The notes beneath the pieces were generated by a model. The model saw only the letters and a list, made by a program, of their open reading frames with translations. It ran no database searches and had not been told where the DNA came from. A program made the position numbers and the translations under genes. Shown piece by piece: positions 2,773 to 50,665 of a stretch of 64,000 nt of DNA. The DNA is from Prevotella sp. GTDB taxonomy: Bacteria; Bacteroidota; Bacteroidia; Bacteroidales; Bacteroidaceae. How positions within the stretch are numbered: position 1 is the first letter of the stretch; every line of letters starts with the position of its first letter. Where the stretch lies: positions 3,414-67,413 of the forward strand of contig JAZLHI010000129.1 in assembly GCA_045616725.1 (NCBI GenBank), written 5' to 3'.

Positions 2773-3822
2773 ATGAGATACATTGGTTGTAAAACTCTAA
2801 TGTTGGAAAACATAATTAATGTCGTTCGCGAACGTACTGAGAATGTTCGGTCAATAACCGATGTGTTCTCAGGAACTGGTGTTGTGGCAAAAGCTTTTAA
2901 GGATTTAGGGTATTCAGTAAATTCAAATGATATTCTGTATTTCTCTTATGTGCTTAACAAGGGGGCAATTGAACAGTATGCTCCCATAGGCAACGGTATA
3001 AAGAACATCATAACTCATTTGAACAATTTGTCGATAGAGAATGCCACTTGGTTTGAGATCGAAAATGCTTTTATCTACCAGAATTACTCACCGCATGAAG
3101 GTTGTGAGAGAATGTATTTACAGTGCAACAACGCTATTAAGATTGATTTAGTCCGTCAAGAAATTGAACGGCTGAGAAATCAAGTGTCTGAATCAGAGTA
3201 CTATTATCTTTTGTCGTTGCTTATAAATGCTGTACCTTACGTTTCAAACATAACGGGTACTTATGGTGCATATCTAAAATATTGGGATAATAGGACTTAT
3301 AATACACTTTATTTGGAAGAAATAGAAATACAACCAAGTGAAGCAGAGTGTCATTGCTATAATTTAGATGCAATGTCATTGGCTAATCAAATAGAATCTG
3401 ACCTTGTATATTTGGATCCCCCATACAATGGGAGGCAGTATTTGCCGAACTATCATCTTTTGGAGACAATAGCCCGTTATGATAATCCTACAATCAAGGG
3501 TGTAACTGGTATGCGTGATGACCCTGAAAAGATGTCAGACTTCTGTAAGAAATCTAAGGCTAAACGTGCATTTGAAGAATTGCTTGATTCTTTGAATTGT
3601 AGATACATATTGCTTTCGTACAATAATGAAGCATTGCTCTCAACCGAAGAAATGTCTGAGATTGTAAAGAATGCTGGTATTGCAGACACCTTTACCCTAT
3701 ATGAATATGACTACAGAAGGTACAAAAATAAGATTCCCAATAATAAAAAAGGACTTAAAGAACAATTGTATTTTGTTGAAAAGAAAGATGATAAAGTCAC
3801 CACTAAACTACATAGGTGGTAA
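2773..3822 (+). CDS. D12-class (Dam-like) N6-adenine DNA methyltransferase, M1 of a Type IIS system
   Basis: N-terminal MRYIGCK, SAM-binding FSGTGVV and catalytic DPPY (VYLDPPYNGRQY). Confidence 0.85.
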   Translation: MRYIGCKTLMLENIINVVRERTENVRSITDVFSGTGVVAKAFKDLGYSVNSNDILYFSYVLNKGAIEQYAPIGNGIKNIITHLNNLSIENATWFEIENAFIYQNYSPHEGCERMYLQCNNAIKIDLVRQEIERLRNQVSESEYYYLLSLLINAVPYVSNITGTYGAYLKYWDNRTYNTLYLEEIEIQPSEAECHCYNLDAMSLANQIESDLVYLDPPYNGRQYLPNYHLLETIARYDNPTIKGVTGMRDDPEKMSDFCKKSKAKRAFEELLDSLNCRYILLSYNNEALLSTEEMSEIVKNAGIADTFTLYEYDYRRYKNKIPNNKKGLKEQLYFVEKKDDKVTTKLHRW

Positions 3823-4621
3823 GTATAGATTATTACCACAAATATTACCTCTGTTTCCAGAACAGATTAATTGCTTTGTTGATTTGTTTGCTGGTGGACT
3901 TGATGTGTCCATAAATGTGAATGCAGAGCATGTGATATGTAATGATATAAACCATTATGTCATAGGATTGTTTGAGTATTTTCAGCATTATGAAATTGAA
4001 GAGTTGATAAATAATATCCATGCGGTAATTGATAAGTATGGACTATCTAAACAAAATCGTGAAGGCTATAACGCTTTGCGGAAAGAGTTTAACAGAACGC
4101 ATTCATCTCTACATTTATTCCTGCTTATTTGTTATGGTTTTAATCACCAGTTTAGGTTTAACAGTAACGGTGAGTTTAACAATCCATTTGGCATCAATAG
4201 AAGTTCTTATAATACAAATACTGAGAGAAATCTCAGACAAATGCATGAAGCTATTAAGGGTTTTGAATATCATATCGGAAACTTCCGTCAATTTGATTTA
4301 GCATTCATGACTCCTGGGGATTTTCTTTATGCCGATCCTCCATACCTAATTTCATGCGGTTCTTACAATGATGGCAAGAGGGGATTTGAGGGGTGGTGTC
4401 CCAATGATGATTTCGCATTGTTTGAAAAACTAGATGACCTCAATCAACGTGGAATCAGCTTTGCTCTTTCAAATGTCATTAGACATAAGGGACAAGAAAA
4501 TGTTGGATTGATTGATTGGGCAAACAATTATAATATCCATTATTTAAACGCAGATTATTCAAATTCTAATTATCAAGCCACTACAAGTGAAACAATTGAA
4601 GTGCTTGTAACAAATTATTAA
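3788..4621 (+). CDS. D12-class N6-adenine DNA methyltransferase, M2 of a Type IIS system
   Basis: Start at MIKSPLNYIGGKYRLLPQI (ATG 3788, overlapping the M1 end by 35 nt). Has FAGGLDV and ADPPY motifs. Confidence 0.85.
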   Translation: MIKSPLNYIGGKYRLLPQILPLFPEQINCFVDLFAGGLDVSINVNAEHVICNDINHYVIGLFEYFQHYEIEELINNIHAVIDKYGLSKQNREGYNALRKEFNRTHSSLHLFLLICYGFNHQFRFNSNGEFNNPFGINRSSYNTNTERNLRQMHEAIKGFEYHIGNFRQFDLAFMTPGDFLYADPPYLISCGSYNDGKRGFEGWCPNDDFALFEKLDDLNQRGISFALSNVIRHKGQENVGLIDWANNYNIHYLNADYSNSNYQATTSETIEVLVTNY

Positions 4622-4624
4622 TAT

Positions 4625-6403
4625 ATGGCTAATAGAACTTTTGGTTGGGTGCAGAATCCATCTTCAACAGATACTTTAAGAGATATACTAAGTCTGTTTG
4701 TACCAGGCTCACAATTTCACACCTATATGGTTAATGAAAGATTGCCTCTGTTGTCAAGTGCAAATCTGCTCAAAACGAAAAATTTGTATATGGACTTTCA
4801 AAAGATACTTCGTACTAATAAGCCTATTGCCTATGACGTATTAAAAGGTCAGGGTGCTGGTGGTGGAAGTCGCTCTAACGCAAAATGCTCTGGGCTTGTA
4901 CAAGCAGCTGTTACTGGTCAGCAATTCAAGGAATACATTGTTGATGGCAGAAAGATTAGAATCAAAAAACCATATACTGACGATTGGACGGCTGACGGCT
5001 TCTTGCGTTGGGCAGTATCCTTAGGATTCCTTGACTACAACTATGCTGATGATACATGCAGCATAACTCAAAGTGGTGTGGATTTTGTTAAAGCAAGTAC
5101 ATCAAAAGAGAAAAAAGAGATTTTGGGCAAGGCTTTTCTTGCGTACCCTCCAGTGTGCCGAGTTTTGGGCTTGTTGAAAAGCCATGGTCACATGACTAAA
5201 TTTGAAATAGGTGCAAGACTTGGTTTTACAGACGAAGCCGGATTTACTTCATTTCCACAAAATATCTGGGTACAAGCATACGAAGAAACAACTGATTCTG
5301 AAGAAAAGAAAAAACTACGCTCTGATACGGAAGGCTCTTCTGATAAGTATGCAAGAATGATATGTGGTTGGTTGGAAGCAATCAACTGGGTATCTAAGTG
5401 CCCAAAAATGGTTACGGAAACTTTTGGAGGCAAGACTTACCACTGTGAGATATCATCAGCATATGAAATTACTGCGATGGGTATAATAAACTATCATAAA
5501 GCGATTGGAAAATCTAAGAGCTCAAGAATACCTAAGATTGTTTATCGAGAAATGCTGGCAAGTAAAGCGTCTGACGCGAACTACCTTAGAATGAGGCGTT
5601 CTTTGATAGTTGGCTATCTCAGTAATCATACACCAAGGTCAATAGACGAGATTCAGGGTTATTTGAACTCCAAGCAGATAAAAGAGCACCTATCCATATT
5701 AAGAGATGACATGGCTGGTCTTATTAATATAGGTATGGACATAGAAATGGTTGGTGATAAGTACAGATTGAACGATAATGTCTTGAAGCTTACTGCATAT
5801 TCTAAAAACGTTACTAAGGAAATCTCTGATGCGGTTGAAGTTAAGGACAGAGTGAGAACCAAACTCTCGAACATTGACCATAAGTATCTCACACTTATAG
5901 ATTACGCATTTTCGGGAAAAGATAAGTGTGTTGATTTTGAAATATACACAATTGACCTTTTGGTGAATGAATTGAAATTCAATGGCGTACATCTTGGGGG
6001 AACAAGAAAACCAGATGGAATCTTCTATCAAGGTGACAAAGGGGTAATAATTGACAATAAAGCTTACTCTAAGGGCTTTACTATTACGAGAGCCATGGCG
6101 GATGAAATGACAAGATATGTTCAAGAAAATAATGATAGGAATGAGGCACGAAATCCTAATCAATGGTGGCTCAGCTTTGAAAGTTCTGTAAATAAGTTCA
6201 ATTTCGTCTTTATTTCATCTCTGTTTAAAGGGGAAGTTGAACAAATGTTAAATAACATAAAGCAAAGTTCTGGCATAGACGGTTGTGCATTAACTGCTGA
6301 AAACTTGTTGTACTTCGCAGATGCAATAAAGGGAGGTTCTCTTGATAGATATGAGTTCATTAATAAATTCGGAGTTAACCGAGAATTGATGTGTACAACA
6401 TAA
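4625..6403 (+). CDS. Type IIS restriction endonuclease, FokI family
   Basis: The C-terminus matches the FokI cleavage domain as I recall it. Here: GGTRKPDGIFY..GVIIDNKAYSKGF..ADEMTRYVQEN..NPNQWW..FNFVFISSLFKG. FokI: GGSRKPDGAIY..GVIVDTKAYSGGY..ADEMQRYVEEN..NPNEWW..FKFLFVSGHFKG. The D...D-x-K catalytic residues are kept. The N-terminal recognition region is also FokI-like (RTFGWVQNP, DGFLRWA, EGSSDKYARMI-GWL). Confidence 0.9.
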   Translation: MANRTFGWVQNPSSTDTLRDILSLFVPGSQFHTYMVNERLPLLSSANLLKTKNLYMDFQKILRTNKPIAYDVLKGQGAGGGSRSNAKCSGLVQAAVTGQQFKEYIVDGRKIRIKKPYTDDWTADGFLRWAVSLGFLDYNYADDTCSITQSGVDFVKASTSKEKKEILGKAFLAYPPVCRVLGLLKSHGHMTKFEIGARLGFTDEAGFTSFPQNIWVQAYEETTDSEEKKKLRSDTEGSSDKYARMICGWLEAINWVSKCPKMVTETFGGKTYHCEISSAYEITAMGIINYHKAIGKSKSSRIPKIVYREMLASKASDANYLRMRRSLIVGYLSNHTPRSIDEIQGYLNSKQIKEHLSILRDDMAGLINIGMDIEMVGDKYRLNDNVLKLTAYSKNVTKEISDAVEVKDRVRTKLSNIDHKYLTLIDYAFSGKDKCVDFEIYTIDLLVNELKFNGVHLGGTRKPDGIFYQGDKGVIIDNKAYSKGFTITRAMADEMTRYVQENNDRNEARNPNQWWLSFESSVNKFNFVFISSLFKGEVEQMLNNIKQSSGIDGCALTAENLLYFADAIKGGSLDRYEFINKFGVNRELMCTT

Positions 6404-6416
6404 ATGAATCATTTGT

Positions 6417-7589
6417 ATGGAAGAAGATTTCGTCGTAAAGCTAGGAGATTGTATGCAAGAGATTCCGATGTTGGACACTCATGTTGACATGATATTTGCT
6501 GATTCTCCTTATTTCCTGTCTTCAGGCAATGGCACCGTCAAGATAAATGGCAGATACATCAACTTTGATAAAGGTAAGTGGGATAGACAACGGTCAAAAG
6601 AAGAGATCTACGACTTCAATAAGCGTTGGCTCACCTTGTGTCGAGAGCGTCTGAAAGACTCTGGAACGATTTGGGTGTGTGGCACGTATCATAATATCTT
6701 TGAGGTGGCCGAATGCTTGAAGGATTTGGGATTCAAAATCTTGAATATGATTGTGTGGCAGAAGTCGGATCCACCTAAGACTTTGACCGACCAACGATTC
6801 AACTTCTCTGCTGAATACATCATCTGGGCACGCAAATGCGAGAAGGTGCCCCACTTCTTCAATTATGAATCCATGGAGCGTATGAATAATGGTGTCCACA
6901 TGCCTGATGTGTGGAAGTTGCCAGCTCCTGGCCATTGGGAGAAGACCTGTGGCAAACATCCTACTCAGAAGCCTCTGCGTTTGCTTTACCGGATTATTCT
7001 TGCTTCCACACGAGAAGGTGAAACCATTCTCGATCCGTTTGCAGGCAGTTGTACTACAGGTATTGCCGCCAACCTTCTTGGGCGTAAGTTCATAGGCATT
7101 GACCAAGATGAAAAGTATCTACAATTAGGTATTCGGCGTCGTGAAGAAATCAACAATCCTGATGTGGCACAGAAGATATTCGAACGTATGTCGGAGAATC
7201 CCGAAGAGGTGCAAGTGATTGTGAATCATGCTCGACCAGATTTATTGAAATTGATGATAGAGAAAGGCATCTGTTACTTACGTGCTGGCGATTCAAAGGG
7301 TTCTGTATTAGTTACTCCAGGCTTTGAGCGAACGGGATATGTTCTACTGCACTCAGGAGGGAAGGACTGTCATTTGTTCAAGTTGAAGCGGAAAGGCTGC
7401 TTCCAGATATGGACAAAAGAGACGTTGGAAGAACATGGTTTTCATCCTGAACATGCCTCGTATTATCAGGTATTTCATTTCGACAATTCCAAAGAGGTCC
7501 CTTTTACTCGTGAACCTAGACTTCTGCAAGGTATCAATACCTACCGCTCTAAAATAAGACCATTATCAGATTTCATTGGCATACGATAA
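6417..7589 (+). CDS. Beta-class N4/N6 DNA methyltransferase with an extra ~145-aa C-terminal domain
   Basis: GDCMQEIP...DMIFADSPYF (motif IV region), HPTQKPLRLL and ILDPFAGSCTTGIAA (motif I). Residues from about 245 onward have no motif I recognise. Confidence 0.8.
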   Translation: MEEDFVVKLGDCMQEIPMLDTHVDMIFADSPYFLSSGNGTVKINGRYINFDKGKWDRQRSKEEIYDFNKRWLTLCRERLKDSGTIWVCGTYHNIFEVAECLKDLGFKILNMIVWQKSDPPKTLTDQRFNFSAEYIIWARKCEKVPHFFNYESMERMNNGVHMPDVWKLPAPGHWEKTCGKHPTQKPLRLLYRIILASTREGETILDPFAGSCTTGIAANLLGRKFIGIDQDEKYLQLGIRRREEINNPDVAQKIFERMSENPEEVQVIVNHARPDLLKLMIEKGICYLRAGDSKGSVLVTPGFERTGYVLLHSGGKDCHLFKLKRKGCFQIWTKETLEEHGFHPEHASYYQVFHFDNSKEVPFTREPRLLQGINTYRSKIRPLSDFIGIR

Positions 7590-37505: not shown

Positions 37506-37513
37506 CAAAATTA
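37506..37513 (-). promoter_or_regulatory. -7 box TAATTTTG inside a conserved promoter cassette (prfC)
   Basis: ggctgcaaaattacgaataagtgagcggaaaagcaaattttatttg. Confidence 0.55.
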
Positions 37514-37579
37514 CGAATAAGTGAGCGGAAAAGCAAATTTTTATTTGATTTTCCCGAACGAGAGTAATTTAGACAAAGT

Positions 37580-37587
37580 CAAAGGTA
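37580..37587 (-). promoter_or_regulatory. -7 box TACCTTTG of a second, tandem promoter cassette
   Basis: gtcaaaggtacgattaagcgagcgaaacaccaaatat, 74 bp upstream of the first cassette. Confidence 0.45.
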
Positions 37588-37695
37588 CGATTAAGCGAGC
37601 GAAACACCAAATATATCACGCAAGAAAATCAGCCAAAATCGGAAAATATTCAGATTTTGGCTGATTTTTCATGAGTATTGTTATAACTATGTTAG

Positions 37696-39399
37696 CTACT
37701 TTTTGAGAGTCACATCATCATTACGCACCCATTTTAGAACACCGTCTTTTAACCAATATGCAGTGTTATCACGGATATAAGGGCATTCCATGTCCAATTT
37801 ATTCATGATTTCGTCTTTGGTTTTCGGTGTCAATCCTTTGGTGTCAGTACAGTTACCTGTCCTATTCTTTTTGTCCAAATACAATCTTATTGTATATGGT
37901 TCATCAAATTCTGGGTCATTGCTTGGGTCAATTACTTTCCAAGTGCCATTATAAGTGCATGTGATTTCGCCGCCGTATCTCCTTATTATGCGACCAGCCT
38001 GTCGTACTACATAATTATTTCTGTACCACTTCTTGGCAGTAAAGGTTCCATTGGCATTGAATGTTATGCTCATACTGATATTTGAAGGATTCTCTCTGTA
38101 TGGTATATATTTCCATGTTCCGACAGCGGCTTTTTTCGTCGCCTCTTGAACACTTGTATTTGCAGACGAACTGGTAGTGTTGAATAATGATTCCGTCCAA
38201 GCTCTTGATTTTTCCATTCTTTTGTCATACTCTGCAAGCGACATTCCTGATACTTGTTCTGGACAACCCGCAAATGCCGATCCTATATTGACTGTAGCAG
38301 TTTTTGCTAAATTTACTTTCGCTAAGTTTCTACAATCGGCAAAAGCAAGATCTTCTATGGTTACGTTTGGATTCGGAATCTCTATAGAGGTCAGTCCACG
38401 GCAACTAATGAAAGCACTTGCTTTAATTTTCGTCACACTATTAGGAATTGTGACTGAACTAAGTTTTGAACAATTCTCGAAAGCACCCATACCAATAGTT
38501 TTTATGGACCCAGGGATTGTGACAGATTTCAAGTTAGGACATTCTGTAAAAGCATATTCGCCAATGCCTATTCCATAATTATTTTCGTTTGCTGTTCCAT
38601 TAGAAACGTTAACCGAAACAAGTGATTTGCAATTCTTGAATGCTCTATGTCCTATCGTTGATACGGAATTGGACATTGTGATAGATGTAAGGCTTTCGCA
38701 GTCTTTGAAAGCTTCTGCGCCAATATGTGTAACTGACTTTGGAATGACAATGGATGTAATACCCTCACCAGCAAAGGCTCCTTCCTCAATGGAAGTTGCA
38801 GTTTCTGGAAGAACAAGATGTGTGATTCCATTTGGATGCCAAACTGGGAAAATCTTTGTACATCCCTCTGCGTAGATCAACTCTGTAAAGTTATCGCAGT
38901 CATCAAACGCATTTTCGTCAATGTTGATATTTGAACTTGAGAATGTAACGGATCTTAGCTTACTACATTCTCCAAATGCCTTTCGTTCAATTTTTCTTAC
39001 GGACTTTGGGATAACAATAGAAGTGAGATTCAGGCACCCTTTAAATGCGTATTTCCCAATAGTTGTCACAGTATTCGGAATTGTGACAGAGGTGAGATTT
39101 GAGCACTTGTTGAATGCGAATTCCCCAATAGTGGTTACAGAATTCGGAATTGTGACAGAGGTAAGATTTGGACAACTACTGAATGCGTATTCCCCAATAC
39201 TTTTCACAGGCAGTGTGGAGCCGTTGTAATTAATAGATGAAGGAATGACAATTGCTTTGGCATCGGTGCTACCGTCTGCTAATTCTGCCGTTTTTGCGGT
39301 TAAATCAATTCGGTAGCTAATACCATCAATCTCCACATCGTCGGCAAAGCTGCATAGTACAGCGGTAAGAAAAAGAAGTGTAAGTGATAAACGTTTCAT
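37696..39399 (-). CDS. BspA-type leucine-rich-repeat surface protein with a lipocalin-like C-terminal domain
   Basis: Signal peptide. About 13 repeats of the form C.NLTSVTIPNSVTTIGEYAF. C-terminal GTWKY... beta-rich domain. Confidence 0.8.
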   Translation of the reverse strand: MKRLSLTLLFLTAVLCSFADDVEIDGISYRIDLTAKTAELADGSTDAKAIVIPSSINYNGSTLPVKSIGEYAFSSCPNLTSVTIPNSVTTIGEFAFNKCSNLTSVTIPNTVTTIGKYAFKGCLNLTSIVIPKSVRKIERKAFGECSKLRSVTFSSSNINIDENAFDDCDNFTELIYAEGCTKIFPVWHPNGITHLVLPETATSIEEGAFAGEGITSIVIPKSVTHIGAEAFKDCESLTSITMSNSVSTIGHRAFKNCKSLVSVNVSNGTANENNYGIGIGEYAFTECPNLKSVTIPGSIKTIGMGAFENCSKLSSVTIPNSVTKIKASAFISCRGLTSIEIPNPNVTIEDLAFADCRNLAKVNLAKTATVNIGSAFAGCPEQVSGMSLAEYDKRMEKSRAWTESLFNTTSSSANTSVQEATKKAAVGTWKYIPYRENPSNISMSITFNANGTFTAKKWYRNNYVVRQAGRIIRRYGGEITCTYNGTWKVIDPSNDPEFDEPYTIRLYLDKKNRTGNCTDTKGLTPKTKDEIMNKLDMECPYIRDNTAYWLKDGVLKWVRNDDVTLKK

Positions 39400-39479
39400 G
39401 TTATTTTGGGTTTAATGCCGGTGTTACATTGGGTTACTTGATTATCCATCATTAAATACATTGTGAGTGTTTGTGGATT

Positions 39480-41144
39480 TTATTTGGGCATAATATTTTC
39501 CTCATAAGAATTCCAAACAGGAGCCTCCTTGTATGTATTTTTTGATTGAGAAGGCACAAAAATTTCAACTTCATCAGGAAAAGGATATAATGTATCTTCA
39601 GCAAGCACTGGAGGTGTTATACTGTTAAAAGTTATTTTTTCCAGGCTTTCGCAATCCATAAACACATATTTACCAATTGTTCTCACTGCATTTCCTATGA
39701 CGACAGAGGATAGGGATTTGCATCCATTAAAGGTGCCGTCTTCTATTCTTGTCACCTTGTTGGGGATAGTGATAGTGAGTAGATTCTCACATTCACTAAA
39801 AGCAGATTCTCCAATATTAGTTACGGAACTCGGGATAGTGATTCTTTTGAGAGATGTACATCCGCTAAAAGCGTGTTCTCCAATAGTTGTTACAGAATTC
39901 GGAATTGTGACAGAGGTAAGGTTTGGGAAACCACTGAAAGCGTATTCCCCAATACTTGTGACAGTATTTGGGATAGTTACAGATGTAAGAGATTCGCAGA
40001 AAGCAGATTCTCCAATATTCGTAACTGATGGTGGAATTGTTATGTTTGGATTATTAAGTGCTGTAATCAGTACTCCTTCTTTTGAATATAGGCAATTATT
40101 GTTGAAAAAGAAGTTCTTGTTGTCTGCGGTAATGTTATTCAAGTTTACACATTCATAAAATGGATTTTTCCCAATTGTTTCAACTGAATTAGGAATGGTT
40201 ATGGAAGACAGTGAGGTACACTCACTGAAAGCGTATTCCCCAATAGTTGTTACAGAACTCGGGATTGTGACAGAAGTAAGATTGGAGCAACCAGAAAACG
40301 CAGATTCTCCAATAGTAGTTACATTGTTGGGTATCGTAATAGATGTGAGTTTGTCGCAGTCACTAAAGGCTCCATCTCCGATACTGGTTATTGATGTTGG
40401 GAGGGAGAAAGGTTGTTTGTTAAGCACAGTAATCAAAGTCCCCTCCCTTGAACAGAAACAATTATTCTCAAAGTAATAGTTTTTGTTGTCAACAATGATA
40501 TTGCTTAGATTGGAAGAAAAAGGATTACTCCCAATTGTGACCACGGAGCTGGGAATGGTGATTGAAGTAATTTTATCACATTTTCCAAATGCATAGTCTC
40601 CTATAGTTGTTACAGAATTTGGAATGTTGATGGATGTTAATGATTCACAGTAATAAAACGCAGATCCTCCAATGGTTTTCACTGAGTTAGGTAGGGTGAT
40701 AGATGTTAATAGCTCACATCCCCTAAATGCTCCATCTCCTATAGTTGTTACAGAGTTTCCTATAGAAGCAGATGTGAGTTTTTCACAGCTACTAAATGCT
40801 TCGTTTCCGATGTTTGTTACAGAGTTTGGTATAATGATAGAAGTTAGTTCCCTGCAGAAAGAAAACGCAGATTCTTTTATGCTTATTACGGAATTCGGGA
40901 TAGTTACAGAAGTGAAGTCGTGGTACCGGAATGCACCTTCTCCAATAGTCGTCACTGCCAATGTTGAACCGTTGTAATTGATTGATGAAGGAATGGCAAT
41001 GGCTTCATTAGGTTGAGCGGCTGTTACTTCTGCTGTTTTGGCAGTAAGGTCTATTTTGTAAAAGAGACCATTAATCTCCACATCCTTTGCAAAGATGCAA
41101 AGTACGGAGATAAGGAAAAGGAGTGAAAGGGATAAACGTTTCAT
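39480..41144 (-). CDS. BspA-type leucine-rich-repeat surface protein (paralog)
   Basis: The first ~75 aa are nearly identical to the neighbouring LRR protein. LRR_5-type repeats run throughout. Confidence 0.8.
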   Translation of the reverse strand: MKRLSLSLLFLISVLCIFAKDVEINGLFYKIDLTAKTAEVTAAQPNEAIAIPSSINYNGSTLAVTTIGEGAFRYHDFTSVTIPNSVISIKESAFSFCRELTSIIIPNSVTNIGNEAFSSCEKLTSASIGNSVTTIGDGAFRGCELLTSITLPNSVKTIGGSAFYYCESLTSINIPNSVTTIGDYAFGKCDKITSITIPSSVVTIGSNPFSSNLSNIIVDNKNYYFENNCFCSREGTLITVLNKQPFSLPTSITSIGDGAFSDCDKLTSITIPNNVTTIGESAFSGCSNLTSVTIPSSVTTIGEYAFSECTSLSSITIPNSVETIGKNPFYECVNLNNITADNKNFFFNNNCLYSKEGVLITALNNPNITIPPSVTNIGESAFCESLTSVTIPNTVTSIGEYAFSGFPNLTSVTIPNSVTTIGEHAFSGCTSLKRITIPSSVTNIGESAFSECENLLTITIPNKVTRIEDGTFNGCKSLSSVVIGNAVRTIGKYVFMDCESLEKITFNSITPPVLAEDTLYPFPDEVEIFVPSQSKNTYKEAPVWNSYEENIMPK

Positions 41145-41187
41145 GTTTTTTTTCGGTTTAATTGTTAGTTTATTTGATTAATTGCGG

Positions 41188-41195
41188 CAAAGGTA
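41188..41195 (-). promoter_or_regulatory. -7 box TACCTTTG (LRR gene pair)
   Basis: Reverse complement of caaaggta, within gcggcaaaggta. Confidence 0.55.
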
Positions 41196-41270
41196 AGGAA
41201 TAATCAGTAAATGTCCGTGTTCCATTTTGTTCCTATTTCTGCGTCAGTGTGTTTTTACTCGTTATTGCAT

Positions 41271-41308
41271 GAAAAAAGCCCGACATTCGTGGTGCGGAAT
41301 GCCGGGCT
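41271..41308 (-). terminator. Intrinsic terminator after the kinase gene
   Basis: Minus strand: agcccggca-ttccgcaccacgaa-tgtcgggct followed by tttttt. Confidence 0.75.
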
Positions 41309-41316
41309 AGTGTTTA

Positions 41317-43107
41317 TCATATTGCTACAATCTTGAAATTGCGCCATACAGGATGCTTGCGGTAGGCGGGGATGCTTTGGGCTGGGACATGGAGCGTGCC
41401 GTAGTGGGTGAAGGTGTCGTAGCTGATGTCCTGCGGGGTAGGGCGGTGGTTGTAGATGTCGTCGAGGACGTTGCAGCCTTGGAATGATGGACCAATGTTT
41501 ATGCAGGATTCTGGTATGGTGATGGAGGATAGCGAGGTGCAACCGCTGAAGACGTACCAGCTGATTTGCTTAACGCCCTCAGGCAGTTCGACGCTCTCCA
41601 AGGAGGTGCAGCCATAGAAAGCGCTGTTTGGGAGTTCGGGCGTGGACGGTGGGATGGTGATAGTCTTGAGGGATGTGCAATCCTGGAAGGCGTTGGAGTC
41701 CAGATGGATTACGCTGCGAGGGATGGTGATGTGGGTAAGTTGGCGGCAGCCTTGGAATGCGCAGTTGTAAACGCGCATTATGCCGTCGGGGATGGTGTAC
41801 CTGCCTTTCTTTGTTGCGGGGCATTGGCGGAGTATCTTGCCTTCGTTGGAGAAGAGGACGCTGTCCTGTACGTATATCCAAGGATTTGTCTTATTGACGA
41901 TGAATGTGTCCAATGTCTGGCAATCCGCAAAAGCACCGTTGCCTACGCTGCGGACGTTTCCTGCGAAGTAAACTGACTTAAGTGACGGACAATTGAAGAA
42001 TGCGTTGTTTCCGATTTCGTGCATCCAGGGATTGAACTCTATGTTCCGTATGTTATTATTGCCGAAGAAAGCCTTCCCGTCAACGGCTATGACGTTGTAT
42101 GTGCGACCGTGGAAGGTCACATTGTCGTGAATGCTTAGCGTGCTGTCCTTTATGACTTCAGCTTCTGCATCTGTTATCATTACGCCGTTGACGCCATGGT
42201 AGTCATACACTTTATAGCTGAATCCGTCAACCGTAAATTCCTCCGCGTACCAATATCGATAGAAATTTGCGCAGCAGAGAACGAGGAGCAGGGTTGCGGC
42301 AACGCTGATGGCTATTGTCCGCCAGACATTTGACCTCTTGCGATTGTAGTAGGCGTCAAAGTCTTCTATAATCTGCTGAGCATTGGCGTAACGGTTTCCT
42401 GTTCTCTCCTGCGTACATTTATCAATAATATGACGAATGGCCTTCGGTAGTCGGCAGCCGGTTTGTGCGATGATGTGCTGAATGATGCGACCGAAGGTGT
42501 AGATGTCGGAAGCTGCGCAGAGGGTGTCCGTGTCTCCCGCCAGTTGTTCAGGGGATGCGAATAGCTGGGACATACCCGTTGTCGTGTCCCATTCCGCTGA
42601 GCGACTGTAGCCAAGGTCTATGATGCGCACGTTGTCAGTTCGTCTTGTCAGCATGATGTTCTGCGGCTTGAGGTCAAGATGCAGTATTCCTGTGCTGTGT
42701 ATGTCGTCCATGGCCTCAAGCATCTGGTAGATGAAGCGGCGCATGTTTATGGCGTTGCGGAAGAATTGCGGCTTTTGTGCCATCCTTTCCTCAAGGGTGT
42801 CGCCATCGATGAAGTCCATGGTGAGCGACATCTCTGTGTCAGTGTCCGTGATGCTGATATACCTTGGAAGGTAAGACGAGCTTATCCTGCACCCAAGATT
42901 GTACTCCTTGATGAAGCAGTCGCGAAGAGCCTTGTCTTGCAGATGTTCCTCGCGCATTTGCTTTATGAAGTAGTGACGGTTGCCCTGATTCCTGTCGAAC
43001 GCCTCCCATGCCAGACAGGTTGTGCTGTCGCGCTTGGGCAGACGGACGGGAACAAGGACGGGCTTTTGCTTGGAAGATATGATTAGTTCGCTCGATTCTG
43101 TTGTCAT
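41317..43107 (-). CDS. Membrane Ser/Thr protein kinase with an extracytoplasmic BspA-type LRR domain
   Basis: Hanks motifs: YFIKQM (Lys), HLDLKPQN (catalytic loop, non-RD), IIDLGYS (DFG equivalent), FASPEQL (APE equivalent). TM helix WRTIAISVAATLLLVLCCANFY, then LRR repeats (FQDCTSLKTITIP, FYGCTSLESVELP, FSGCTSLSSITIP). Confidence 0.8.
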   Translation of the reverse strand: MTTESSELIISSKQKPVLVPVRLPKRDSTTCLAWEAFDRNQGNRHYFIKQMREEHLQDKALRDCFIKEYNLGCRISSSYLPRYISITDTDTEMSLTMDFIDGDTLEERMAQKPQFFRNAINMRRFIYQMLEAMDDIHSTGILHLDLKPQNIMLTRRTDNVRIIDLGYSRSAEWDTTTGMSQLFASPEQLAGDTDTLCAASDIYTFGRIIQHIIAQTGCRLPKAIRHIIDKCTQERTGNRYANAQQIIEDFDAYYNRKRSNVWRTIAISVAATLLLVLCCANFYRYWYAEEFTVDGFSYKVYDYHGVNGVMITDAEAEVIKDSTLSIHDNVTFHGRTYNVIAVDGKAFFGNNNIRNIEFNPWMHEIGNNAFFNCPSLKSVYFAGNVRSVGNGAFADCQTLDTFIVNKTNPWIYVQDSVLFSNEGKILRQCPATKKGRYTIPDGIMRVYNCAFQGCRQLTHITIPRSVIHLDSNAFQDCTSLKTITIPPSTPELPNSAFYGCTSLESVELPEGVKQISWYVFSGCTSLSSITIPESCINIGPSFQGCNVLDDIYNHRPTPQDISYDTFTHYGTLHVPAQSIPAYRKHPVWRNFKIVAI

Positions 43108-43127
43108 GATTATGATAAATCAGTTCC

Positions 43128-43712
43128 TTACAAGGTTGAAATGTTGCAGTATCTCAATCCTCCATTCTTGCCGCAGATGTAGCTCATCGCGACATGTCCT
43201 TCGCGTAGAAGATTCTCGCAACACATGGCTTGTCCCTCAATGATCTGCGTACACTGGAACGTGTCCCTCTCCACCAGCTTGCTGTTCTCGCTTGTGAGTA
43301 CGCGGAATGTGTAGTTGCCAAGGTATTCTACTGTGATGCGGCGGTCTGGATTCCAAGTTATCTGCAGCAGGCTGCCCACTTCCAATGTGGAGAACATCAG
43401 TGAGTGTATACCGTTCAGCATCTCGCTTGACGATGTGTCAGAGTCTTTCCTTGCCTTGAAATCCTCCCAGCAACTGTAGCCGATGAGCTTGCTCAATACG
43501 TTCAGGGTGTTTAGCGATGGTGCGGAATTGCCGGCTTCCTGGTAGCCCCAGAATCGACGCAACGTTGTGGCAGACACCATTTCCTTTGTGTTCGTGTAGA
43601 GCAGACTTGCCAGTATGTCAAAGTGCCTGCGAGTCTGGAATTTCATTCCTGTGAAGGCTTCCACACGCGCGCGCAATTTTTTGTAGATGATGTCAATGTC
43701 AGTTTCTTTCAT
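43128..43712 (-). CDS. Hypothetical protein with an HTH-like N-terminal segment
   Basis: Start at MKETDIDIIYKK (ATG 43712), downstream of TACCTTTG box 43778-43785. The segment MVSATTLRRFWGYQEAGNSAPSLNTLNVLSKLIGYSCWEDF resembles an XRE-like HTH. Confidence 0.5.
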   Translation of the reverse strand: MKETDIDIIYKKLRARVEAFTGMKFQTRRHFDILASLLYTNTKEMVSATTLRRFWGYQEAGNSAPSLNTLNVLSKLIGYSCWEDFKARKDSDTSSSEMLNGIHSLMFSTLEVGSLLQITWNPDRRITVEYLGNYTFRVLTSENSKLVERDTFQCTQIIEGQAMCCENLLREGHVAMSYICGKNGGLRYCNISTL

Positions 43713-43785: not shown

Positions 43786-43964
43786 ATAATTTCCTTGGGT
43801 ATTGCCAATTTTTCTGCATTGCAATTAAGGAAAATTGTTTTATTGGAGCATAATGGAACAATAATGTGGATTGGGATTTCCATGGAAATGAACTTAAATG
43901 GCAATAAAATGGGGGCAAGAGAGAAATTTCTCGGACAAAATCTTTGAATTTCAGATAATTTGTT

Positions 43965-43972
43965 TAATTTTG
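43965..43972 (+). promoter_or_regulatory. -7 box TAATTTTG (riboswitch transcription unit)
   Basis: tttaattttgcactcgc, about 35 nt upstream of the riboswitch P1 region. Confidence 0.55.
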
Positions 43973-44004
43973 CACTCGCAAACAAACATTTGCACCCAGA
44001 AATA

Positions 44005-44195
44005 TAGACAGTCGGTTCGGCAGAGATGCCGATTAAAAGGGAATCAGGTGTAAGTCCTGAACAGGCCCGCTACTGTAACCCAAATTTTGTATCCCGGAGC
44101 AATCCATTGCCATTAGGGTGGCGAGAAGGACCGGGATTGGGAAGTCAGGAGACCTGCCACTGTTGTAACATCAAAAGGCTTCGAGGATCAGGCTG
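44005..44195 (+). promoter_or_regulatory. Cobalamin (B12) riboswitch
   Basis: Core ggttcggcagagatgccgattaaaagggaatcaggtgtaagtcctgaacaggcccgctactgtaacc, plus B12 box gccactg at 44156-44162. Confidence 0.9.
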
Positions 44196-44321
44196 ATGAA
44201 TATCCCATCGTCATTCAATAGAAGGAATGTACTGCGTACGTGGCATTTTGCCGTGTATCTACTTCGCGTAGTATTCTCCCTTTCGTCTGTCCTCGGCAGC
44301 TTATTGCGTAAAGAATTATAA
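44196..44321 (+). CDS. 41-codon ORF directly downstream of the B12 riboswitch (micropeptide or gene remnant)
   Basis: Hand translation: MNIPSSFNRRNVLRTWHFAVYLLRVVFSLSSVLGSLLRKEL. The ATG lies 34 nt after the B12 box. Confidence 0.3.
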   Translation: MNIPSSFNRRNVLRTWHFAVYLLRVVFSLSSVLGSLLRKEL

Positions 44322-44371
44322 GTTGTTGTTAAATAGTTTCAATGCATTTAATGTGCGTAATTGTAACTCTT

Positions 44372-44415
44372 GGAAACCGTGGCCGATGTGAATCGGCTGC
44401 GGTTTTCCGGTTTGA
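44372..44415 (+). terminator. Intrinsic terminator closing the riboswitch unit
   Basis: ggaaaccgtggccgat-gtga-atcggctgcggttttcc followed by ggttt. Confidence 0.6.
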
Positions 44416-44502
44416 GGCGATGGCTGTTTTGATGATTGTCAAATAAGAATGAGTTTTTCTGCATTTTTTTTCGGATTGTTTTGCTAGTTGGGAAAATAGT
44501 CA

Positions 44503-44510
44503 TACCTTTG
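44503..44510 (+). promoter_or_regulatory. -7 box TACCTTTG (tRNA cluster)
   Basis: catacctttgcactcgc, 46 nt upstream of the first tRNA. Confidence 0.55.
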
Positions 44511-44555
44511 CACTCGCTTTCAGAGGGAAGCTACTCCATAAGAGTACAGAAAGAT

Positions 44556-44628
44556 GCGGAAATAGCTCAGTTGGTAGAGCACAACCTTGCCAAGGTTGGG
44601 GTCGCGGGTCCGAGTCCCGTTTTCCGCT
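44556..44628 (+). tRNA. tRNA-Gly (GCC)
   Basis: Cloverleaf folded by hand: acceptor gcggaaa/tttccgc, anticodon loop cttGCCaag, T-loop tccgagt. Confidence 0.9.
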
Positions 44629-44666
44629 CTTTAGATTTAAAAAAGAACTTGCGTTCTTGGAAATTT

Positions 44667-44748
44667 GCCCAGGTGGCGGAATTGGTAGACGCGCACGTTT
44701 CAGGTGCGTGTATCGCAAGATGTGCAGGTTCGAGTCCTGTTCTGGGCA
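44667..44748 (+). tRNA. tRNA-Leu (CAG)
   Basis: Acceptor gcccagg/tctgggc, anticodon stem cacgt/gcgtg with loop ttCAGgt, long variable arm, T-loop ttcgagt. Confidence 0.85.
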
Positions 44749-44765
44749 CAAAGACTTATTGTAAT

Positions 44766-44849
44766 GGAGAGGTGGCGGAATTGGTAGACGCGCTACTTTG
44801 AGGGGGTAGTGTCAATTGTGACGTGGGAGTTCGAGTCTCCTCCTCTTCA
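44766..44849 (+). tRNA. tRNA-Leu (GAG)
   Basis: Acceptor ggagagg/cctcttc, anticodon loop ttGAGgg, long variable arm, T-loop ttcgagt. Confidence 0.85.
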
Positions 44850-44874
44850 CTACTTTAATGAGTTTCTGAATTTT

Positions 44875-44947
44875 GCGGAAATAGCTCAGTTGGTAGAGCA
44901 CAACCTTGCCAAGGTTGGGGTCGCGGGTCCGAGTCCCGTTTTCCGCT
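44875..44947 (+). tRNA. tRNA-Gly (GCC), identical second copy
   Basis: Sequence identical to 44556-44628. Confidence 0.9.
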
Positions 44948-45101
44948 CTACATTAGTAAAGGTTTTAAAGGTTAAATTGTTTGAATTCTGAGTGACTTTC
45001 ACGTAAGTGAATCACTGAGAATTTTTTTGTTCTATTACCCTTCTTGTTTTATGGATTATGCACAAAGGGGGTGATAACATAATAAACGAAAACACATAAA
45101 A

Positions 45102-49554: not shown

Positions 49555-49926
49555 TTACAATTTGCTCAGCAACTCCTTAATCTTCTCGTGCACGAGTCTT
49601 GATTCTTGTGGTTCATTGGCAAGCCAAACAAGGGCGATGTTTGCAGTGCGTTCGCAGGAAGGCTTGTTCAGTCGGTAGGCTTCGCGCATCTGTCGCTTTG
49701 CCCTTACACGGTCAACGGCACGGTGAAGCCTTTTCTTTGCAACGCTTATGAGAACCTTCACTCTTGGCTCCGATTCATCTTCCCTAGTCACATAGCGGTA
49801 TACCATACGGATTGGGTAATTCGTAATGCCTTTTGCATTGCCTGGAGTGAAGAGTTCTTCAATTTCCTTCTGCAAGTATATGCGCTCTGCTTTTGGGAAT
49901 TTCATTACACTATTCGTCGTCTTCAA
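49555..49926 (-). CDS. rnpA: Ribonuclease P protein component
   Basis: Basic ~120-aa protein upstream of yidD, with an RNR-like region KKRLHRAVDRVRAKRQMREAYR. Start could also be 49905. Confidence 0.8.
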   Translation of the reverse strand: MKTTNSVMKFPKAERIYLQKEIEELFTPGNAKGITNYPIRMVYRYVTREDESEPRVKVLISVAKKRLHRAVDRVRAKRQMREAYRLNKPSCERTANIALVWLANEPQESRLVHEKIKELLSKL

Positions 49927-50665
49927 GGTCGCGGAGATATTTGTTGAGTGCTCCGGTCATAGAAGGATACTTTTCGTTAGGAGCTTCCACTACGACATTG
50001 AGTTCTGCGTCGTGGGCTGCCTTTGTAGTAGCAGGTCCGAAAGTCGCCACAGCGACGTTCTTCCTGATGTCTTCCGGCACGTTCTTTTCGAAAGAAGCAA
50101 TGCCAGAAGGTGAGAAGAATACGCACATGTCATAGTCGAAACTTGCGATTTCATCTTTTGTAAAGTCATTGCTCAGTGTGCGATACATCACGCATTCAGT
50201 ATGCTTGAGCTTCTTGCCGTCGAGCATAGACTTGATTGTGCTGTCGTGAACGTCTGAGAGCGGCACGAGGTAAAGCTCGCTCTTATGCTTCTGCATGATT
50301 GTTACGAGGTCTTCAATCTTGCCTGTAGGAGAGAAGAAGACCTTGCGCTTGCGGTATGGGATGTACTTCTGGATATAGAGTGAGATGGTCTCTGTCACGC
50401 AGAAGAACTTCATGTCCTCAGGGATTGGCTGGTGGTTTTCCTTCGCAATCTGGAAGTAACTGTCAATGGCATGACGTGAAGTGAAAACAACAGCCGTATA
50501 GTGGAGAATGTTTACCTTCTGCTTTCGGAACTCGAGCGAAGGAATCTTCTCAACCTTGATGAATGGACGGAATACAATCTCTACTTCGTAACGGTCAGCG
50601 ATGTCATAGTAAGGCGACTTTTCGCTACTTGGTTTAGGCTGTGATACGAGGATTTTCTTAATCAT
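49910..50665 (-). CDS. hemD: Uroporphyrinogen-III synthase-like (HemD family) protein
   Basis: MIKKILVSQPKP... two-lobe HEM4-like pattern, as annotated in Bacteroidota. Confidence 0.65.
   Translation of the reverse strand: MIKKILVSQPKPSSEKSPYYDIADRYEVEIVFRPFIKVEKIPSLEFRKQKVNILHYTAVVFTSRHAIDSYFQIAKENHQPIPEDMKFFCVTETISLYIQKYIPYRKRKVFFSPTGKIEDLVTIMQKHKSELYLVPLSDVHDSTIKSMLDGKKLKHTECVMYRTLSNDFTKDEIASFDYDMCVFFSPSGIASFEKNVPEDIRKNVAVATFGPATTKAAHDAELNVVVEAPNEKYPSMTGALNKYLRDLEDDE

Follow-up and report, generated by a model that had tools for sequence, protein, structure and literature searches.

A cobalamin riboswitch with no gene behind it in Prevotella: a candidate B12-gated noncoding RNA

What does a cobalamin (B12) riboswitch control when no gene follows it? 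The question is raised by a locus in a 64,000-nucleotide (nt) stretch of DNA from an uncultured gut Prevotella sp., on contig JAZLHI010000129.1 (the window, which here always means that whole stretch). A complete cobalamin aptamer stands there behind its own promoter, followed by a short open reading frame (ORF), a terminator-like hairpin, and a tRNA cluster. The locus appears to be a selected, independently transcribed noncoding RNA of ~430 nt that is led by the riboswitch and gated by B12, and the probability of this reading is roughly 0.5. Less specifically, a noncoding transcription unit under selection is highly probable. All of the evidence is computational, and the unit was compared across three lineages: the window, L025, and L019 (L019-L024).

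Anatomy of the unit and conservation of its ends

The unit has a promoter, a sensor, and a terminator, and it contains no conserved coding sequence. Its parts are the following.

43943-43972, +: unit promoter, with the -33 element TTTG at 43943-43946, an 18-nt spacer, and the -7 box TAATTTTG at 43965-43972
43995-44175, +: cobalamin aptamer (Rfam RF00174), full length, including the peripheral P6 extension
44176-44200, +: platform, directly 3' of the aptamer, AAAGGCTTCGAGGATCAGGCTGATGAA, including the AUG at 44196-44198
44196-44321, +: 41-codon ORF, MNIPSSF...RKEL, most likely no gene
44199-44317, +: variable linker, exactly 119 nt in all three lineages
44318-44348, +: invariant 31-mer, ATAAGTTGTTGTTAAATAGTTTCAATGCATT, identical in the window, L025, and L019
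44335-44368, +: small hairpin of the RNAalifold consensus, conserved
44372-44415, +: terminator-like hairpin, GGAAACCGTGGCCGAT-GTGA-ATCGGCTGCGGTTTTCC followed by GGTTTGA, the 3' end of the unit

The promoter is of the Bacteroidetes type. A scan of the whole 64-kb window for the composite TTTG-N17-21-TAnnTTTG found 17 sites where 1.5 were expected, and the riboswitch promoter and the tRNA promoter are both among them. The sigma-70 consensus was uninformative for Bacteroidota. The -7 box at 43965-43972, recognized in an earlier first-pass annotation of this DNA, is present and is accompanied by its -33 TTTG. In the alignment L019 retains the -33 TTTG and the -7 box (TACTTTTG) despite a diverged spacer. 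Judging from these elements, transcription would start at about 43979-43981.

The sensor is a complete aptamer of the cobalamin family. It matches RF00174 with 103.6 bits (E 8e-25, model positions 1-189) and is the sole Rfam cobalamin match in the window. The scores of 102.7 bits in L019 and 101.4 bits in L025 are likewise far above the gathering score of 31.5 bits. The first-pass annotation had correctly recognized a full aptamer, with the core aaaagggaatcaggtg...ggcccgctactgtaa at 44035-44078, while its limits (44005-44195) were 10-20 nt off. It had also taken gccactg (44157-44163) for the B12 box, but the RF00174 alignment and the published box consensus make this the tail of the box plus the 3' strand of helix P1. 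The box proper is presumably AGTCAGGAGACCTGCC at 44143-44158. Aptamer identity across lineages is 95-96%, and the differences lie in loops or bulges or change G-C pairs to G-U. The conserved core nucleotides are consistent with corrinoid binding.

The 3' end of the unit forms a structured domain of ~95 nt (44318-44410). It opens with the 31-mer, whose first ~17 nt (44318-44334) are AU/GU-rich and unpaired in the consensus fold, and which is a candidate seed or binding site. The 1-2-nt insertions and deletions (indels) seen in L025 and L019 lie within the small hairpin's loop, and they exclude coding in this domain; L025 also has an A-to-T change in an internal loop. The arms of the terminator (44372-44387 and 44392-44408) pair over 16-17 bp around a GUGA loop and are followed by UUUUCC/GGUUU. 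Of the four changes in L019, two turn G-U into A-U and one turns G-C into G-U, all with pairing retained, and the fourth breaks a pair. A 98-nt segment of the domain folds with -34 kcal/mol and z = -4.9. The strong hairpin with a T run reported earlier is therefore real, and it escaped a simple terminator scan because the extended stem takes in part of the T run. In the modelled structure a conserved, accessible candidate seed is combined with a terminator hairpin, as in base-pairing small RNAs (sRNAs). Taken as a whole, the order of promoter, sensor, 25 nt, and ~95-nt tail is what a small regulatory RNA would show if a riboswitch were joined to its 5' end.

The 41-codon ORF exists with the translation given earlier, and the peptide is not conserved across the lineages. 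L025 also has 41 codons, with the middle third in another frame (MNFQSSFKQEGMYSVRGVLPCTCFMYFPPSSVLSSLLRKKE), while in L019 the conserved AUG opens 9 codons (MNSLYIYII) that are followed by further in-frame stops. A word-indexed search of 5.8 billion proteins found no homologues, the single match of a phmmer search of 1.84 billion representatives was a six-fold tandem-repeat artefact, and no Pfam or NCBIfam family matches the product. Translation starts in Bacteroidota depend on leaders that are A-rich and unstructured, and not on Shine-Dalgarno pairing. In the 18 nt that precede the AUG of the ORF, 17% are A and 39% are G, whereas 29 window genes average 44% A and 10% G, and just one of the 29 is as G-rich before its start. 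In a phylum with A-rich leaders, this G-rich and A-poor context makes a poor start site. The frame shift and shortening in relatives, the lack of homologues, and the poor start context together lead to rejection of the B12-controlled micropeptide that had been proposed, and translation of the ORF itself is unlikely to have a role.

Both ends of the unit are far more conserved than neutral sites, while the middle has drifted or been replaced. The neutral yardstick was the identity at 4-fold degenerate sites of two flanking genes, which is 0.63 between the window and L019 and 0.75-0.81 between the window and L025. Between lineages the aptamer and platform together have an identity of 0.956, and the 3' domain has an identity of 0.926-0.978. 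The platform is identical at 25 of 25 nt between the window and L019. Under the neutral rate the binomial probability of such conserved ends is 4e-11 to 6e-29 for the window and L019, and 4e-6 to 6e-29 over both comparisons. The spacer that leads to the tRNA promoter has an identity of 0.85, and L019 carries a 70-nt insertion directly after the hairpin. A single recent transfer or recombination tract does not explain these islands, since diverged or replaced DNA (the linker, the promoter spacer, and the 70-nt insertion) lies between them. Purifying selection on two separate elements does explain them.

The linker shows no conservation apart from its length. Between the window and L025 it is 80% identical, with indels of +2, -1, and -1, which is about the neutral level. 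Between the window and L019 it is unrelated, with 27% ungapped identity and an alignment score at the level of shuffled sequence. Inversion as the origin of the equal-length linker in L019 was rejected by comparison. The constant 119 nt would be explicable by a constraint on length or by exchange of whole cassettes between distant alleles.

Competing readings of the locus

No gene downstream of the unit can be its target. The features that flank it are listed below.

44416-44430: unit boundary; homology to relatives without the riboswitch begins at ~44418, right after the hairpin
44480-44510, +: promoter of the tRNA cluster, its own and outside the unit
44556-44948, +: tRNA-Gly(GCC), tRNA-Leu(CAG), tRNA-Leu(GAG), and tRNA-Gly(GCC) (ARAGORN, Rfam)
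43128-43712, -: divergent gene for a 194-amino-acid (aa) protein, function not assigned, followed by a Ser/Thr kinase-LRR gene

The relatives L007-L009 span the tRNA cluster and encode a 187-aa protein that is 83-84% identical to the one just 3' of the cluster in the window. They share the four tRNAs and the tRNA promoter with the window and lack a cobalamin riboswitch, and a phenylacetate-CoA ligase gene occupies the upstream side. The tRNA operon is therefore independent of the riboswitch, as the earlier suggestion of a separate tRNA promoter implied. The unit lies at a synteny breakpoint, since homology with these relatives starts after the hairpin and a different gene stands upstream. The genes examined across the 64-kb window include none that serves B12 transport, synthesis, or use, which bears out the first-pass observation that the expected regulated gene is absent. 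L025 and L019 have the same order of 194-aa gene, promoter, aptamer, hairpin, and tRNA-Gly. The description of a stand-alone unit, with its own promoter and terminator, no real gene, and independently transcribed tRNAs behind it, thus holds.

The reading that fits best is a B12-responsive regulatory RNA. This was one of three explanations put forward in the first-pass annotation, which had not noticed the conserved 3' domain that now carries most of the argument. The 5' part of the RNA would consist of the B12-binding aptamer and the 25-nt platform. It would be joined through the 119-nt linker, free in sequence and constant in length, to an sRNA-like 3' domain made up of the partly single-stranded 31-mer, the small hairpin, and the intrinsic terminator. 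Binding of B12 would alter either the accumulation of the full-length RNA or the availability of its 3' domain. When B12 is scarce, this domain would act in trans by pairing with mRNAs or by binding a protein. The full model of a B12-gated trans-regulator is tentative and has at best an even chance of being right. With the odds somewhat against it, scarcity of B12 might lead the RNA to expose the 31-mer and re-tune genes that have no riboswitch, making it a "B12-sparing" regulator by analogy with the iron-sparing RyhB.

The coupling between sensing and output may involve the platform, which presumably has a role in the unit. By itself it is weakly structured in folding predictions. CAUCA (44170-44174) is able to pair with UGAUG (44194-44198) and so bury the AUG, and a GGC loop might touch loop L5, but both of these proposed contacts are weak. 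Two further pairings were considered. A kissing loop between L5 (GCCCG) and the platform would have only 3-4 bp (GGC or GGCU) and is speculation, and an antiterminator pairing of the platform with the 5' arm of the terminator, an 8-bp match, was rejected as too weak and too distant. Control by Rho or by an RNase is possible. The fixed 119-nt length of the linker may also be relevant to the coupling.

Several results weigh against a B12-gated RNA that acts in trans. Scans and folds found no terminator-like hairpin between 44176 and 44371, and none conserved in the three lineages, nor did they reveal any other recognizable switch 3' of the aptamer. Stretches rich in C and poor in G (rut-like) after the platform are not conserved in position. 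No convincing target of the 31-mer was found by complementarity in the 64-kb window, where the best duplex is 16 nt long, about the level of chance, and is antisense to the 3' end of a gene, away from the start codon. An Rfam search of the 3' domain gave noise alone, for example rteR with 19.9 bits against a gathering score of 72. In addition, the unit is known from three closely related lineages only. Two metagenome scans gave 0 matches, the first with an invariant 25-mer made up of the P3 hairpin plus core and the second with a 32-mer from the core of the aptamer. Two scans of viral collections (3' domain; platform) likewise gave 0.

Among the alternatives, an inert relic survives best, and it is unlikely. 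A deletion would have removed a B12-regulated transporter or biosynthesis operon, leaving the riboswitch, the first codons, and the terminator with nothing working. The AUG does lie ~20 nt 3' of the aptamer, at the place expected for the start of a regulated gene, the ORF product starts like a signal peptide, and the synteny breakpoint falls in a variable region. A dead remnant, however, should decay evenly, whereas the ends of the unit are 93-98% identical against 63-81% at neutral sites, its middle drifts or is replaced, and its promoter elements are retained. Nor was a longer protein with the N-terminus of the ORF found in two large protein collections. The earlier proposal that the unit is the stump of a deleted locus may therefore describe its origin, which an ancient deletion could account for, and does not describe its present state.

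An effect in cis on the neighbouring transcription units has a small probability. B12-tuned transcription would read into or interfere with the tRNA promoter 90 nt downstream, or it would compete with the divergent promoter of the 194-aa and kinase genes. In all three lineages these two transcription units flank the unit, the divergent promoters of L019 are only ~75 nt apart, and the U tract of the terminator is short. However, the hairpin itself is strong and conserved, and the 70-nt insertion in L019 indicates that spacing to the tRNA promoter is unconstrained. L007-L009 have the tRNA promoter in the same form although they lack the unit, nothing obvious ties these tRNAs or the kinase to B12, and the invariant 31-mer is left unexplained.

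About as improbable is a B12-binding RNA that is non-regulatory or directed at a protein, that is, a buffer or store of corrinoids, or a sponge or scaffold with a protein-binding 3' domain. It would account for an aptamer that is kept without an evident expression platform, for a conserved and structured 3' domain, and for the lack of a local base-pairing target. Buffering would need very high RNA levels, however, no candidate protein partner is at hand, and the hairpin loops differ from the paired hexaloops found in ANTAR substrates.

The weakest alternative is a B12-controlled small protein or leader peptide, the output being either the peptide or its translation, which could, for example, shield the RNA from Rho; it is very improbable, because the invariant AUG and 20 nt before it, the possible burying of that AUG, the constant linker length, and the 41 open codons that end at the first bases of the 3' domain in both the window and L025 despite the L025 indels are set against an unconserved sequence without credible homologues, a start context unlike that of 28 of the 29 window genes, and a chance of roughly 1 in 7 to 1 in 10, by our own estimate, that a 41-codon frame is open at random.

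Genomic setting

The unit is found in a narrow group of relatives. Two protein anchors were used to find them: the 187-aa protein just 3' of the tRNA cluster, with which 14 genomic loci were fetched, and the divergent 194-aa neighbour (43128-43712, -), whose homologues led to their contigs. The closest genome matches of the window are metagenome-assembled genomes that carry the labels Prevotella sp. and Bacteroidaceae; those with the Bacteroidaceae label come from horse faeces. Contigs L001 and L002 belong to the same species and are nearly identical to the window. The other carriers of the unit are L025, with 92% identity in the 194-aa protein, and L019-L024, with 86%. Metagenome-assembled genomes with the unit stand behind L019, L025, L005, and L006. 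This protein is the sole neighbour linked to the unit in all three lineages. Its distant homologues (33-59% identity; L026-L033) have the kinase partner and lack the riboswitch. The P0003 and P0001 searches added no lineage, and a search for related riboswitch DNA with the 56-aa frame overlying the aptamer found nothing. Partial tRNA repeats of the att type, a sign of mobile islands, were looked for and not found.

Among the genes examined in the window are a FokI-type restriction system, Rnf, glycoside hydrolases, a hybrid two-component system, prfC, BspA-like repeat proteins, the kinase, ssb, tyrS, rnpA, and metK. The only tetrapyrrole-related gene of the window encodes a HEM4 (uroporphyrinogen-III synthase) domain protein at 49910-50665 (-), 5.5 kb downstream, in a conserved DUF4271-HEM4-rnpA arrangement; the gene shows no sign of a link to the riboswitch. 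The 194-aa and Ser/Thr kinase-LRR proteins form a conserved pair (37696-43712 in the window, 1391-7369 in L019). After this pair come BspA-like repeat proteins in the window and an FtsK/SpoIIIE ATPase with a WXG100-like protein in L019 and L029, so that the region looks like a variable secretion- or surface-related island by the tRNA cluster. The FokI-type restriction-modification system (2773-7589) comprises a D12-class adenine methyltransferase, a second N6/N4 DNA methylase, and a 592-aa protein with all four FokI domains (recognition domains D1-D3 and cleavage).

Some of the promoters share longer sequences. The 11-mer TTTGCACTCGC, consisting of the end of the -7 box and the next 7 nt, is common to the riboswitch promoter (43969-43979) and the tRNA promoter (44507-44517), and it is also retained in L025 and L019. 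Relatives without the riboswitch have TTTGCACCCGC in its place at the tRNA promoter. With one mismatch the 11-mer has three matches in the window, which is not unusual by chance (20 of 100 shuffles). A near-identical 32-mer, TTTGCTnTTTCnCTCnCTTAATCGTAnnTTTG, is found at four promoter-motif sites, all on the - strand (895-926, 1298-1329, 37506-37537, and 37580-37611), which points to a promoter cassette or a small element repeated ahead of several genes.

A few of the related sequences show possible assembly or labelling problems. L001 has a single tRNA-Gly in place of the Gly-Leu-Leu-Gly cluster of the window, reflecting either assembly collapse of the identical Gly copies or real recombination, and many related contigs end at the tRNA-Gly repeat. 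The end of the L024 contig, a Logan assembly, is TCGGAAGAGCGTCGTGTA (the last ~18 nt as aligned, on the reverse strand of L024:1-575). It matches the Illumina adapter sequence and is adapter contamination. L012 (CAVDQB010000008.1) is titled Faecalibacterium prausnitzii, yet a homologue encoded there is 56% identical to the Prevotellaceae 187-aa protein, and the contig is probably mis-binned or mislabelled.

Known riboswitch RNAs and meaning for gut Bacteroidota

The closest parallels to the unit are sRNAs from Firmicutes. EutX of Enterococcus faecalis and Rli55 of Listeria monocytogenes are listed in reviews as sRNAs with an adenosylcobalamin riboswitch (for example, PMC5821096 and PMC7602753). 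According to these reviews B12 ends their transcription early, and the protein-sequestering 3' part is made only without B12. Like them, the unit has its own promoter, a 5' B12 aptamer with no gene behind it, a downstream domain, and its own terminator, and the long form of ~430-450 nt is also similar, as predicted here from sequence. The differences lie in the switch, the output, and the setting. EutX and Rli55 have an intrinsic terminator right after the aptamer that gives a short form with B12, and none is seen here. Their output is a pair of ANTAR-binding hairpins that sequesters EutV, whereas the unit has an AU/GU-rich 31-mer and a hairpin, with loops of ~7 nt and a GUGA tetraloop instead of the paired ANTAR hexaloops. 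They are located in eut loci, while the unit adjoins tRNAs and a kinase operon in a member of the Bacteroidota, and there are no eut genes in the window. The comparison with Rli55 and EutX made in the first-pass annotation thus applies to the general plan and not to the early terminator or the ANTAR hairpins.

Other systems resemble the unit in single respects. AspocR of Listeria, as cited in PMC11575231, is an antisense RNA under a B12 riboswitch, so that there too the riboswitch governs a noncoding transcript rather than an mRNA. It is antisense to pocR, whereas no gene lies on the opposite strand beneath the transcript of the unit. SreA and SreB of Listeria and a Desulfovibrio SAM-I riboswitch/sRNA (bioRxiv 10.1101/803072) are riboswitch RNAs that act in trans, as is proposed here. 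They differ in that they sense S-adenosylmethionine and are terminated leaders of real mRNAs, while the unit has no mRNA and has a dedicated 3' domain. GibS, an intergenic sRNA of Bacteroides (PMC7366714), has a conserved single-stranded stretch, stem-loops, a terminator, and its own promoter; it lacks a ligand-sensing domain and has no sequence or Rfam similarity to the unit.

Conventional B12 riboswitches of the Bacteroidales have the same sensor and a different context. Those of the P. gingivalis cbl-1-btuB locus (PMC3422912) and of X. ruminicola KHP1 (PMC11575231) belong to the same aptamer family and have a Bacteroidetes promoter directly upstream. Riboswitches of this kind are co-transcribed with TonB-dependent transporters or cobamide genes (btuB, cob operons). 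In the window, a terminator, a separate promoter, and four tRNAs come before the next coding gene on the same strand, an order that departs from the cis-acting arrangement of RF00174.

A riboswitch RNA of this type might help to explain responses to B12 that have no local riboswitch. In the related rumen bacterium Xylanibacter ruminicola only two of the four cobalamin riboswitches precede B12 genes, and cobalamin shifts the expression of mutAB and other genes with no nearby riboswitches involved (PMC11575231). A riboswitch-gated, trans-acting RNA could be one route for such effects, which is offered as a suggestion and not as a finding. For Bacteroidota, searches of the literature turned up no stand-alone B12 riboswitch RNA, in agreement with the first-pass statement that riboswitch-controlled sRNAs are not known there.

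Annotation assigns a riboswitch almost automatically to the next gene as its leader, and this locus departs from that pattern. If the unit works, its coupling of ligand sensing to output is probably new, given the lack of an early terminator, the fixed-length linker of free sequence, and the new 3' domain. It supplies a defined 95-nt element and a 181-nt aptamer that would be amenable to study in a cultured Prevotella or Segatella relative. Competition for B12 shapes gut communities, and regulation by trans-acting RNA in these communities is only starting to be mapped. A functional unit would extend riboswitch-controlled noncoding RNAs, so far represented by EutX, Rli55, and AspocR in Firmicutes, to the Bacteroidota of the gut.

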